Origin: Escherichia coli O127:H6 str. E2348/69
Lineage (GTDB): Bacteria > Pseudomonadota > Gammaproteobacteria > Enterobacterales > Enterobacteriaceae
Length of the DNA: 64,000 bases
Assembly: GCF_000026545.1 (NCBI RefSeq)
Contig: NC_011601.1
Direction: 5' to 3' (one strand)
Position 1 is the stretch's first letter, and the number at the start of each line of letters is the position of its first letter. The notes under the pieces were generated by a model. That model was not told the origin of the DNA. It saw nothing but the letters and a program-made list of their open reading frames with translations, and ran no database searches. This document shows positions 35,912-47,203 of the stretch, piece by piece. A program made the position numbers and the translations under genes.

Positions 35912-35929
35912 TGTGTGGTTGTCGGTACA
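35912..35929. promoter_or_regulatory. Late promoter activator dyad (TGT-N12-ACA) in P/O divergent region
   Basis: TGTgtggttgtcggtACA ~80 bp upstream of O start; P2 late promoters carry this dyad. Confidence 0.5.
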
Positions 35930-36007
35930 AATACCGCGCATTGTTTCACTGCCTCCATCACCGCAACCATAAGGCTCCAGTAAGTTTTTTCTAACGGAGC
36001 ACGGCTC

Positions 36008-36841
36008 ATGACAGTGAAAGCAAAGCGTTTTCGCATCGGGGTGGAAGGTGCCACCACCGATGGACGCGAAATCCAGCGTGAATGGCTGGAACAGATGGCA
36101 GCCAGCTACAACCCGGCGGTGTATACCGCGCTGATTAACCTTGAGCACATCAAGTCTTATCTGCCGGACAGCACCTTTAACCGCTACGGCAAGGTGACGG
36201 CGCTGTTTGCTGAAGAAATCACGGAAGGTCCGCTGGCAGGCAAGATGGCGCTGTATGCCGACGTTGAGCCAACGGAGTCCCTGGTGGAGCTGGTGAAAAA
36301 AGGCCAGAAATTATTCACCTCTATGGAAGTCAGCCCGAAGTTCGCTGATACGGGCAAAGCCTACCTGGTCGGCCTGGCTGCCACTGATGACCCTGCCAGT
36401 CTGGGCACTGAAATGCTGACATTCAGCGCCAGTGCAGCCCATAACCCGCTGGCAAACCGCAAGCAGAATCCTGCCAATCTCTTTACCGCTGCAGAGGAAA
36501 CGGTGATCGAACTGGAAGAAATCCAGGAGGACAAACCGTCCCTGTTTGCCCGTGTCACGGCGCTGTTCACCAAAAAAGAGCAGTCCGATGACGCCCGGTT
36601 CTCTGATGTGCATAAGGCCGTGGAACTGGTCGCCACTGAGCAGCAGAACCTGAGTGCGCGCACCGAAAAATCCCTGTCTGAGCAGGAAGAACGCCTGTCT
36701 GAGCTGGAGACTGCCCTGCAGGCACAGCTGACCGCCTTTAACGAACTGGTGGACAAGCTGAGCCATGAAGACAGCCGCCAGGACTACCGCCAGCGTGCAA
36801 CAGGCGGTAACGCCCCCGCTGACACTCTGACCAATTGCTGA
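36008..36841 (+). CDS. O: Capsid scaffolding protein (P2 gpO-like)
   Basis: 277 aa; N-terminus MTVKAKRFRIGVEGATTDGREI P2 O-like. Confidence 0.85.
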   Translation: MTVKAKRFRIGVEGATTDGREIQREWLEQMAASYNPAVYTALINLEHIKSYLPDSTFNRYGKVTALFAEEITEGPLAGKMALYADVEPTESLVELVKKGQKLFTSMEVSPKFADTGKAYLVGLAATDDPASLGTEMLTFSASAAHNPLANRKQNPANLFTAAEETVIELEEIQEDKPSLFARVTALFTKKEQSDDARFSDVHKAVELVATEQQNLSARTEKSLSEQEERLSELETALQAQLTAFNELVDKLSHEDSRQDYRQRATGGNAPADTLTNC

Positions 36842-36857
36842 TGGAGCACAAAACCTG

Positions 36858-37916
36858 ATGAAGAAGAATACCCGCTTTGCTTTTAACGCTTACCTGCAGC
36901 AGCTGGCGCGTCTGAACGGTGTGGCAGTTGAAGAACTGTCCAGCAAGTTCACCGTGGAGCCGTCCGTGCAGCAGACGCTGGAAGACCAGATCCAGCAATC
37001 CGCCGCATTCCTGACGCTGATTAACGTCACGCCAGTGACTGAGCAGTCTGGTCAGTTGCTGGGGCTGGGTGTTGGCAGCACCATTGCCGGAACCACTGAT
37101 ACCACCGCAAAAGAGCGTGAGCCTGTCGATCCGACGCTGATGGTCGATGTGGAATACAAATGCGAGCAGACCAACTTTGACACGGTGCTGACCTACGCGA
37201 AGCTGGACCTGTGGGCGAAGTTTCAGGATTTCCAGGTGCGTATCCGTGACGCCATCGTGAAACGTCAGGCACTGGACCGCATCATGATCGGCTTTAACGG
37301 CGTGAAGCGTGCGAAAACCTCCAACCGTAGTGAAAACCCGCTGCTGCAGGATGTGAACAAAGGCTGGCTGCAGAAAATCCGTGAGGATTCACCGGATCAC
37401 GTCATGGGCAGCACCACCACGGGCGGCGAAACCACACCGGGTGCGGTGAAAGTCGGGAAAGGTGGCGAATATGCCAACCTGGACGCTGTGGTGATGGATG
37501 CGGTCAATGAGCTTATCGACGTGGTCTACCAGGACGATGACGATCTGGTGGTGATTTGCGGTCGTGAACTGCTGTCTGACAAGTATTTCCCGCTGGTCAA
37601 CAAAGAGCAGGAAAACAGTGAAAAACTGGCTGCCGATATGATTATCAGTCAGAAACGCATGGGCGGTCTGCAGGCCGTGCGTGCGCCGTTCTTCCCGCCG
37701 AATGCGCTGCTGATCACCCGTCTGGATAACCTGTCCATCTACTGGCAGGAAGACACCCGCCGCCGTTCAGTTATCGACAACCCGAAACGTGACCGGATTG
37801 AAAATTTTGAATCCGTTAACGAAGCCTACGTGGTTGAGGACTACCGCTGCGCCGCACTGGTGGAAAACATCCAGATTGGCGACTTCAGCGCCGCCGCAGC
37901 AGAAACCGGAGCGTAA
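36858..37916 (+). CDS. N: Major capsid protein (P2 gpN-like)
   Basis: 352 aa; strong by-eye match to P2 N (TRFAFNAYL..., FNGVKRAKTS..., IGDFSAAAA...). Confidence 0.9.
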   Translation: MKKNTRFAFNAYLQQLARLNGVAVEELSSKFTVEPSVQQTLEDQIQQSAAFLTLINVTPVTEQSGQLLGLGVGSTIAGTTDTTAKEREPVDPTLMVDVEYKCEQTNFDTVLTYAKLDLWAKFQDFQVRIRDAIVKRQALDRIMIGFNGVKRAKTSNRSENPLLQDVNKGWLQKIREDSPDHVMGSTTTGGETTPGAVKVGKGGEYANLDAVVMDAVNELIDVVYQDDDDLVVICGRELLSDKYFPLVNKEQENSEKLAADMIISQKRMGGLQAVRAPFFPPNALLITRLDNLSIYWQEDTRRRSVIDNPKRDRIENFESVNEAYVVEDYRCAALVENIQIGDFSAAAAETGA

Positions 37917-37919
37917 TTC

Positions 37920-38570
37920 ATGAGCCTGAGTCCCGCACGGCAGCATCGCCTGCGCGTTCAGGCTGAACAGGCCGCTCGTGAGGGCGGCAGTGTTCGCCAC
38001 GCGTCGGGCTATGACCTGATGCTGCTGCAACTGGCGGAAGACCGCCGCCGTCTCAAGGGCGTTCAGTCCACGGTGAAAAAAGCGGAAATAAAGGTGGAGC
38101 TGCTGCCGAAATATGCCGCCTGGGCGGAGGGCGTCCTGGCTGCCGGAGGCGCTCAACAGGATGACGTGCTGATGTACGTGATGCTGTGGCGCATTGATGC
38201 CGGAGATTATGCCGGGGCGCTGGAGATCGGGCGTCATGCCCTGCGTCATGGCTGGGTGATGCCGCTGGGTAACCGCAACGTGCAGACCGTGCTGGCAGAG
38301 GAAATGGCAGATGCAGCGCAGAGCGCAATGCTTGCCGCCACCGGCTTTGATGCCGATCTGTTGCTGCAGACGCTGGAGCTGACAGACGGTCTGGATATGC
38401 CGGACCAGTCACGGACGCGTCTGCATAAAGCGATTGGCGCTGTCCTGAGTGAAAGCAATCCGGCTTCCGCCCTTAATCATCTCAACCATGCGTTACAGCT
38501 CGATCCCCGCTGTGGCGTGAAAAAAGACAAACAGCAGCTGGAGCGCAGACTGCGCAATGACAGCCGCTGA
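37920..38570 (+). CDS. M: Terminase small/endonuclease subunit (P2 gpM-like)
   Basis: 216 aa; by-eye match to P2 M (QDDVLMYVMLWRIDAGDYAGALEI). Confidence 0.85.
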   Translation: MSLSPARQHRLRVQAEQAAREGGSVRHASGYDLMLLQLAEDRRRLKGVQSTVKKAEIKVELLPKYAAWAEGVLAAGGAQQDDVLMYVMLWRIDAGDYAGALEIGRHALRHGWVMPLGNRNVQTVLAEEMADAAQSAMLAATGFDADLLLQTLELTDGLDMPDQSRTRLHKAIGAVLSESNPASALNHLNHALQLDPRCGVKKDKQQLERRLRNDSR

Positions 38571-46453: not shown

Positions 46454-46489
46454 TTATCTCTTCTATAATATCAAAATCAGTATCATAAA

Positions 46490-46515
46490 TTCCAAGTAAC
46501 CTACGTTTATGAAAA
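46490..46515. repeat. gix/hix-like 26-bp recombination site B
   Basis: TTCCAAGTAACCTACGTTTATGAAAA, ~55 bp upstream of invertase start; 18/26 identical to reverse complement of site A. Confidence 0.55.
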
Positions 46516-46570
46516 TGCAGAGATAATGGCTAACTGGCATCATCCACGGTTTTTATTCAGGGGATTGATC

Positions 46571-47137
46571 ATGCTTATTGGCTATGTACGCGTGTCAACA
46601 AATGACCAGAACACCGATTTGCAACGTAATGCACTGAACTGCGCGGGATGTGAGCGGATTTTTGAGGATAAAATCAGTGGCACTAAGTCCGACAGACCGG
46701 GGCTTAAAAAACTGCTCAGGACACTATCGGCAGGAGACACTCTGGTTGTCTGGAAGCTGGACAGGTTGGGGCGCAGTATGCGGCATCTTGTTACGCTGAT
46801 AGAAGAGTTGCGTCAGCGTGGCGTGAATTTCCGAAGCCTGACTGACAGTATTGATACCAGCACCCCAATGGGCCGTTTCTTTTTTCATGTCATGGGGGCC
46901 CTGGCTGAAATGGAACGCGAACTGATAGTTGAACGTACCATGGCAGGGCTGGCTGCAGCTCGTGCCAAAGGCAGAGTAGGTGGACGCCGTCCTAAGTTGA
47001 CCACCGAACAGTGGGCACAGATTGGGCGTTTACTCGAGGCCGGAGAATCAAGACAGCGTATTGCACTGATTTTTGATGTAGGCGTTTCTACCATTTATAG
47101 AAAATTTCCGGCAAATAAGAGCAATGAATCCCCCTGA
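46571..47137 (+). CDS. pin: Serine site-specific DNA invertase (Pin/Gin/Hin family)
   Basis: Start MLIGYVRVSTNDQ with catalytic Ser; near-identical by eye to e14 Pin / Mu Gin; C-terminal HTH. Confidence 0.9.
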   Translation: MLIGYVRVSTNDQNTDLQRNALNCAGCERIFEDKISGTKSDRPGLKKLLRTLSAGDTLVVWKLDRLGRSMRHLVTLIEELRQRGVNFRSLTDSIDTSTPMGRFFFHVMGALAEMERELIVERTMAGLAAARAKGRVGGRRPKLTTEQWAQIGRLLEAGESRQRIALIFDVGVSTIYRKFPANKSNESP

Positions 47138-47185
47138 ATCAGCATTATTTTGATTATCCCTGCAAGCAGACAAATACCGTCATTT

Positions 47186-47203
47186 TGTGTGAATAACGGT
47201 ACA
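47186..47203. promoter_or_regulatory. Late promoter activator dyad (TGT-N12-ACA) upstream of FI
   Basis: TGTgtgaataacggtACA ~77 bp upstream of FI ATG. Confidence 0.55.

Follow-up and report, generated by a model that had tools for sequence, protein, structure and literature searches.

Predicted Ogr-type late-activator sites in a P2/186-like prophage of Escherichia coli E2348/69, one of them apparently inverted together with a cargo gene

The chromosome of Escherichia coli O127:H6 str. E2348/69 carries a P2/186-like prophage, annotated in RefSeq between rcdA and ybjL, that lies within the 64,000-nucleotide stretch of contig NC_011601.1 analyzed here (hereafter, the window, to which all coordinates refer unless another record is named). 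In this prophage, three exact dyads of the form TGT-N12-ACA precede the late operons that start with P and O, with V, and with FI. In our estimation, with a probability of roughly 0.85, these dyads are the binding sites, predicted from sequence, of the Ogr-type late activator that is encoded by the prophage itself, and one of the three was inverted, along with a cargo gene, by the tail-fiber invertase of the phage. The dyads are thereby explained as ordinary P2 design, where the short distance to V and the neighboring cargo gene are both normal, and neither the variable cassettes in which one of the dyads resides nor the inversion changes the current understanding of P2 late control.

The prophage spans approximately positions 20446-54423, from int (at ~20446) to the ogr-like gene, with int, CI, CII, and ogr annotated in P2-type order. 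Its gene order is Q and P; O, N, M, L, X, the lysis genes, R, and a truncated S (S'); the inverted genes H', I, J, W, and V; the cargo gene; the invertase gene; and FI, FII, E, T, U, D, and ogr. Three complete assemblies of strain O127:H6 E2348/69 match the region in the window at 100% identity.

Three dyads at the positions of P2 late promoters

The first dyad (35912-35929, TGTGTGGTTGTCGGTACA, centered at 35920.5) falls between P (34099-35865, minus strand) and O (start at 36008, plus strand). The second (45262-45279, minus strand; TGTATGATTTTTGGCACA as shown, TTGTGCCAAAAATCATACA on the V strand) lies 45 nucleotides (nt) upstream of the V start codon, the A of which is at 45216 on the minus strand, and, on the V strand, starts 63 base pairs (bp) before the V ATG. 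The third (47186-47203, plus strand, TGTGTGAATAACGGTACA) is located 76 nt upstream of the FI ATG at 47280, and each late operon is preceded by an exact match to the motif. All three dyads had been pointed out in a first-pass annotation, made from the letters of the sequence, and were recovered by a pattern search, which returned a further match that was not listed there (35854-35871, TGTGGTGTTCATGGCACA). This fourth exact match lies 58 bp from the P/O dyad and overlaps the start codon of P. We rejected it as a promoter site and consider it a chance occurrence, given its overlap with P codons, its lack of any fitting promoter geometry, and the ATA that replaces ACA in at least one relative.

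The assignment of the motif to Ogr-dependent late promoters, which the first-pass annotation had made, is borne out by the published consensus, by the placement of the dyads, and by the presence of an activator gene. TGT-N12-ACA is the consensus of the four Ogr-dependent late promoters of P2, namely, PP, PO, PV, and PF (PMC3931495, which cites Christie & Calendar 1985 and Julien & Calendar 1995). The ogr-like gene of the prophage (54205-54423, plus strand) encodes a late activator of 72 amino acids with a CX2CX22CX4C motif, 51% identical to P2 Ogr (E = 2e-28) and matching the Pfam family Ogr_Delta (E = 5e-22); its product is named 'ogr/Delta-like zinc finger family protein' in RefSeq, and the element can be said to carry a cognate zinc-finger activator of the Ogr/Delta/B type.

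The exact motif is absent from the annotated activator sites of P2 and 186, and the comparison with these phages was, therefore, based on the annotated sites and their geometry. In the P2 GenBank record, a single activator site (3057-3087) serves both pO and pP, with transcription starts 55-56 bp to either side; the pV site is at 10239-10266, with the start at 10308, the first base of the V start codon and 55.5 bp from the center of the site; and the pF site is at 17555-17583. The 186 record contains a site for the B protein that is common to p12 and pV, and another one for pJ. The distances from the site center to the start codon in the window, P2, and 186 are, respectively, 55.5, 79, and 77.5 bp for P (orf12 being the P homolog in 186), 87.5, 95, and 88.5 bp for O (V in 186), and 85.5, 83, and 82.5 bp for FI (J in 186); for V, the distance is 54.5 bp in the window and 55.5 bp in P2, with no annotated counterpart in 186. 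Thus, the dyads are placed as in P2 and 186, including the one site common to P and O, and only the P side differs, being shorter. The closeness of the V dyad to the V start codon, to which the first-pass annotation drew attention, is real but is no anomaly, as the P2 pV site shows. The alignment with known late promoters that the same annotation had proposed gives a similar picture: the V-strand dyad shares 16 of 19 positions with the 186 pJ site, and the P/O dyad shares 13 of 19 with the p12/pV site. The joint chance of matches within a few base pairs of the position expected under the P2 rule at all three promoters is approximately 1e-7 to 1e-9.

The N-termini of P and V align in register with those of P2 P and V; given the shorter P side, the P message is, therefore, predicted to be leaderless or nearly so, and, if V and P are both leaderless, the spacing seen in the window fits the rule that transcription starts about 55 bp from the center of the site. 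A consensus scan for sigma-70 promoters between 45100 and 47400, which covered the V and FI sites, called no promoter toward V or FI at the expected positions, although such a negative carries little weight.

If the mechanism of P2 and 186 applies here, the activator would bind ~55 bp ahead of each start and recruit RNA polymerase to promoters without a usable -35 element. The site at 35912 would serve both divergent promoters, P leftward and O rightward; the site at 45262 would serve the V-W-J-I-H operon, with a start at or next to the V start codon and, hence, a leaderless or near-leaderless message as annotated for P2; and the site at 47186 would serve the FI operon. The starts predicted under the same rule would be located near 35865, 35976, 45216, and 47250.

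Conservation of the dyads across relatives and cassettes

The relatives compared comprise 80 viral contigs whose V protein shows 97-100% amino-acid identity, supplemented with 5426 complete E. coli genomes. In 56 of the 80 contigs, S and V are 68 bp apart; at least nine other cassette types have a gap of 550-2231 bp. The cargo-bearing cassettes are AT-rich (GC content 0.31-0.35 versus 0.54) and contain one or two genes each, in all cases on the strand opposite to V. The cassette type present in the window is found uninverted in 5 viral contigs and 17 E. coli genomes.

Across ten unrelated S-V cassette types, that of the window included, all ten have an exact dyad that starts 63-66 bp before the V ATG. 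When these cassettes are aligned on the dyad, T-TGT and ACA are the only invariant columns, and the 44 nt that precede the V ATG are, on average, 28% identical between cassette types, which is the random level. The retention of the dyad amid spacers of random-level identity argues that each cassette brings its own V promoter, as predicted from the sequences, with selection keeping only the dyad and its spacing to V. These cassettes, then, amount to a natural experiment that defines the minimal requirement of the V promoter, namely, the dyad and the spacing.

The other two sites are comparably stable. All 39 relatives compared at FI carry an exact dyad 92-94 bp ahead of the FI start codon; their upstream regions comprise 24 distinct sequences from at least four families, with TGT and ACA invariant and variation confined to the N12 spacer. 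Upstream of O, each of the 70 relatives compared has an exact dyad 96 bp ahead of the start codon. The ten V-upstream cassettes and the four or more FI-upstream families imply conservation beyond what common descent would yield.

Inversion of the V operon with its dyad and the cargo gene

Relative to the 17 uninverted E. coli prophages with the same cargo gene, a segment of 4757 bp (41745-46501) is inverted in E2348/69. The minus strand of this segment encodes H' (41731-42792), I, J, W, and V (44638-45216); the V dyad and the cargo gene come next, and then the final codons of S as their reverse complement. In comparison with strain NCTC11121, where the cargo gene lies between S and V in the normal order, positions 41738-46509 form a single reversed block at 99.9% identity with colinear flanks, and the 1958-bp invertible tail-fiber segment of NCTC11121 is missing from the window. 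In comparison with the closest phages (our loci L001 and L002), colinearity stops inside S, 41738-45216 aligns in reverse, and 45217-46497 has no match. The suggestion of the first-pass annotation that the V-proximal dyad had moved with an inverted block is, accordingly, upheld, the dyad being located inside the segment.

The adjacency of the dyad and the cargo gene is ancestral and was not made by the rearrangement, because the cargo gene, the dyad, and V-W-J-I-H' are all inside the inverted segment; in the 17 uninverted E. coli prophages and the 5 viral contigs, the cargo gene occupies the S-V slot on the opposite strand, in the manner of P2 orf30. An earlier notion, that the V dyad is not the ancestral promoter, given that the region upstream of V has no homology to L001 and L002, was dropped once these uninverted relatives with the same cargo gene were found.

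The breakpoints coincide with the 2-bp cores of 26-bp sites, each consisting of two imperfectly inverted 12-bp half-sites, and both junctions are exact half-site hybrids. In NCTC11121, S harbors a quasi-site, TTATGCTAAACG-TA-GGTTACTTGGAA (also given as TTATGCTAAACGTAGGTTACTTGGAA), and the two tail-fiber crossover sites are cixL in H (TTCTCACATACC-TT-GGTTTGGGAGAA) and cixR adjoining the invertase gene (TTCTCCCAAACC-AA-CGTTTATGAAAA). The left junction in the window (J1, 41731-41756, TTATGCTAAACG-TA-GGTATGTGAGAA) combines the left half of the S quasi-site with the reverse complement of the H-side half of cixL; the right junction (J2, 46490-46515, TTCCAAGTAACC-TA-CGTTTATGAAAA) combines the reverse complement of the right half of the quasi-site with the invertase-proximal half of cixR. 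The adjoining gene (46571-47137, plus strand) encodes a serine DNA invertase with a resolvase domain (Pfam Resolvase, 6.8e-53) and a C-terminal helix-turn-helix (HTH_7, 1.5e-15), under the same protein accession as the invertase of the uninverted NCTC11121.

These hybrids point to two invertase-mediated events, namely, an inversion between the S quasi-site and a tail-fiber site, and the loss of the invertible segment. The Hin/Gin/Cin-type invertase of the phage, or a paralog from another prophage in the strain, would have recombined the quasi-site with the tail-fiber crossover sites, inverting 41745-46501 and removing the 1958-bp segment, so that the cargo gene, the V promoter, and V-H' moved as one block. 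A symmetric TA core in a hybrid site would abolish directionality and could permit deletion. Secondary crossover sites reportedly have a precedent in the work on Cin quasi-sites of phage P1. The presumed precursor site, in which the H 5' part is joined to the invertase-side half-site, was not found among the fetched loci; among the 5426 complete genomes, the only loss of the invertible segment with joined outer half-sites is that in a P2-like prophage of E. coli EC16 (NZ_CP189734.1; positions 6241-6264 of our locus L088), an independent event with the sequence TTCTCACATACC-CGTTTATGAAAA that lacks the 2-bp core. The half-site AAACCTTGGTTTGGGAGAA has been reported for the e14 and Mu inversions (PMC4272514).

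The inverted order is present in the three E2348/69 assemblies and in one IMG/VR record (L011), and was limited to records of E2348/69 when the 5426 complete E. coli genomes were searched together with the fetched loci; J1, likewise, was found only in the E2348/69 copies among the 87 loci searched. A paired-end screen of E2348/69 with a sensitivity of ~1:100 detected three invertible prophage loci only, at 1.89, 2.75, and 2.98 Mb of NC_011601 (PMC4272514, Table S1). The inverted locus is at ~0.88 Mb in LT827011.1, an assembly other than the one used in that screen, and none of the loci of the screen is listed near it.

The tail completion gene S is truncated (41369-41744, plus strand): it breaks off at the quasi-site, continues into antisense H sequence, and is annotated in RefSeq as a pseudogene without a C-terminus. 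Computational reversal of the inversion makes the S reading frame whole again but does not repair H, and G and the end of H are missing in either orientation, so that the prophage lacks an intact S, the C-terminal part of H, and G. The V promoter, intact in sequence, would now fire toward the truncated S. It would be head-on to the O operon, which continues past the truncated S into the antisense of H'-V; judging from orientation, read-through would reach the cargo gene in the sense direction. A terminator-like hairpin, GCCGTTTGATACGGC with the T-rich tail CTTTTTT, is located on the antisense strand of the truncated S (41562-41576, minus strand), where transcripts of the inverted V operon would now meet it. 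Overall, a tail-fiber invertase acting on a quasi-site in an essential gene would have flipped an operon and helped to disable the prophage of a reference pathogen strain.

The 186 record contains a 'Mu-like inversion crossover site' annotated inside the tail-fiber gene K (12962-12987 of our locus L087), and no invertase was found in the annotated stretch 1-20000 of 186. Relic crossover sites in tail genes of the P2 family are, therefore, not unusual.

The cargo gene

The cargo gene (45308-46453, plus strand) is AT-rich, divergent from V, and encodes 381 amino acids with an uncharacterized N-terminal domain and a HEPN-like C-terminal domain. Its homologs, which form 23 clusters, all from Enterobacterales where the source is named, begin at the ATG at 45308, preceded by GGAG and 28 nt beyond the dyad. 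The view that the dyad directly abuts the cargo open reading frame (ORF) has, then, to be abandoned: the longer ORF that starts with TTG at 45272 is not the real gene. The protein belongs to phrog_28299, a family of unknown function. The HEPN motif R-x4-6-H is present in a four-helix domain, as R336-x4-H341, which is invariant among 19 aligned homologs. No model of Pfam, NCBIfam, or PADLOC, HEPN and defense models included, scored above the threshold (best PADLOC E = 0.28), and the protein has no similarity to P2 Orf30. The designation HEPN-like, thus, derives from fold and motif and not from a named family; the cargo protein is a candidate abortive-infection or defense RNase.

Points against the interpretation and alternative explanations

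Several considerations weigh against our interpretation of the dyads and the inversion. The motif as such is not enriched: the window contains 11 exact matches versus 15.02 +/- 3.72 in shuffled sequences, 86 of 100 of which have at least 11, and the prophage contains 6 versus ~8 expected, with three of these six away from the predicted late-promoter positions, at 35854 (the P start codon), 48496 (FII), and 50491 (T). The first-pass annotation had regarded a similar density in non-promoter DNA of the element as telling against the dyads, and there is, indeed, no excess over such DNA; because density is not above chance, the argument rests on position and conservation, which do exceed chance. 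Furthermore, the annotated P2 and 186 sites lack exact TGT-N12-ACA and carry TGT-N12-CCA or TGT-N11-ACA, so the exact motif is a consensus rather than a requirement; the specificity of the local activator, at just 51% identity to P2 Ogr, may differ; the -55 rule is transferred to the window from P2 and 186; the late promoters of a defective prophage may never fire productively; and how, and in what order, the two recombination events took place is deduced from the junction sequences only.

The alternative that fares best concerns the transcription of the cargo gene. The first-pass annotation had proposed that this gene is read from, or interfered with by, late transcription. The former part does not hold, because the cargo gene runs divergently from V and the V promoter is unable to read it; the latter, interference of late transcription with the cargo, is possible as far as the arrangement of the sequence goes. 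The cargo start, at 45308 in the window and with 47-138 nt between the first ATG and V in other cassettes, is too close to V for a separate promoter, because of which the cargo promoter, on the sequence evidence, must overlap the V promoter region. Given this overlap, the distal arm of the dyad might be the -10 element of a constitutive cargo promoter, where binding of the late activator would block or modulate cargo expression by interference rather than by read-through. A candidate of this kind, TTGTGG-17-TGgCACAAT with a start near 45288, can be drawn in the window, and, in most cassettes, the distal arm reads CACAAT, ACAAAT, or TACAAA on the cargo strand. However, the resemblance to a -10 element follows almost automatically from the ACAA half-site, the -35 element matches at 3 of 6 positions, and the consensus scan of 45100-47400 called no sigma-70 promoter for the cargo gene, so we regard this explanation as unlikely.

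Slightly more doubtful still is the broader idea that the V-adjacent activator site also gates the HEPN-like cargo, turning it off or on, via the overlapping promoters, with the distal arm, TGgCACAAT in the window, read as a -10 hexamer on the cargo strand. The Ogr/B/delta activator could come from the resident prophage, from a superinfecting P2-like phage, or from a P4-type satellite. If true, such gating would tie a candidate defense gene to the sensing of the late program of a related phage, and the inversion would have left the gating unit intact but freed from the ancestral convergent read-through from the O operon.

A very improbable variant is that the V dyad is bidirectional like the P/O site, with the late activator also turning on the cargo gene. 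In P2 and 186, one site serves both divergent promoters at P/O, and the cargo gene starts a mere 28 nt from the dyad; but a divergent start 55 bp to the right of the dyad center would be near 45326, ~18 nt inside the cargo ORF, whose start at 45308 is fixed by the homologs and preceded by GGAG, and the variable distance from the cargo ATG to V in other cassettes (47-138 nt) shows that the geometry is not conserved.

That the 45262 dyad is a chance match in AT-rich cargo DNA, the true V promoter having been lost when the S-V intergenic region was replaced, would fit with the lack of enrichment of the motif in the window and with the 45 nt between the dyad and V being devoid of homology to the S-V intergenic region of L001 and L002. 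We give this explanation next to no credence, because ten unrelated cassettes, this one included, retain the exact dyad at 63-66 bp from V amid spacer sequence that is no more similar than random, the distance is that of the annotated P2 pV site, and the match to the 186 pJ site extends to 16 of 19 positions. Equally negligible is an origin of the inverted order by misassembly or ordinary homologous recombination: invertible repeats often break or scramble assemblies, and many IMG/VR contigs end at the tail-fiber crossover site, but the same arrangement is found in three complete assemblies and one IMG/VR record, the junctions share just an 11-bp core (TAAACGTAGGT), too short for RecA-dependent exchange, and each breakpoint coincides with the 2-bp core of a site built like an invertase crossover site.

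Other features of the window

Several other features of the prophage deserve mention. In the cos-adjacent hotspot (31510-33049), there is a gene pair resembling the ShosTA toxin-antitoxin defense system: an ORF of 191 amino acids (31510-32085; PADLOC ShosT, 3.7e-14) that is without annotation in the RefSeq record CP059840.2, and a DprA-like gene (32075-33049; PADLOC ShosA, 2.8e-70). Adjoining the integrase is a gene for a KAP-family P-loop NTPase (21585-23102, minus strand) that matches the PADLOC candidate defense family PDC-S20 (5e-78) and is itself adjoined by two CI-type repressor genes. The tape-measure gene T (49461-52538) is an intact ORF of 1025 codons in the window; in CP059840.2, it is annotated as frameshifted, and coordinates there are offset by 1 nt downstream of T. 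Outside the prophage, in the host intergenic region between ybjJ and rcdA, a near-perfect palindrome, TGTGTACATTTGTACACA (19766-19783), has the same pattern as the dyads; our guess is that the TetR-type regulator RcdA may use it as an operator.

Comparison with known systems

With respect to the sites of recombination, the prophage resembles the Hin/Gin/Cin/Pin systems in that a serine invertase gene lies beside tail-fiber genes and the 26-bp sites, with 12-bp half-sites and a 2-bp core, recombine exactly at the core. It differs from these systems in that an essential tail gene supplies one of the two partner sites, a quasi-site, and in that the outcome is a 4.76-kb inversion of a whole operon along with the loss of the invertible segment, rather than a switch of tail-fiber variants.

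The S-V slot, variable, AT-rich, and filled with opposite-strand genes, is akin to the moron and defense slots of P2-like phages. In R18C, a different ORF replaces orf30 (PMC6823313), and Rousset et al. described a comparable cargo hotspot adjoining cos in P2-like phages (PMC9122126), the one occupied by the ShosTA-like pair in this prophage. What sets the S-V slot apart is that each cassette would bring its own V promoter, a point that we did not find in the literature searched.

Compared to 186, the prophage has an early region of the same type (CI, CII, and Fil), and the late-activator sites are similar in sequence and in the distances to the first genes, whereas 186 has no cargo between the S and V homologs, which are separated by a 69-bp gap, and the right half-sites read CCA.

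The closest parallels are with P2, where, as predicted for this prophage, three activator sites serve four promoters, one of the sites being common to P and O; the PV site is ~55 bp before the V start codon, with an opposite-strand gene between S and V; in P2, that gene, orf30, is non-essential. The PF site is ~83-86 bp before FI, and an Ogr-family activator is encoded after D. The differences are that the sites in the window are perfect TGT-N12-ACA dyads, those of P2 being TGT-N12-CCA or TGT-N11-ACA; that the P side of the P/O region is ~23 bp shorter; and that the V operon is inverted and its cargo gene unrelated to orf30.

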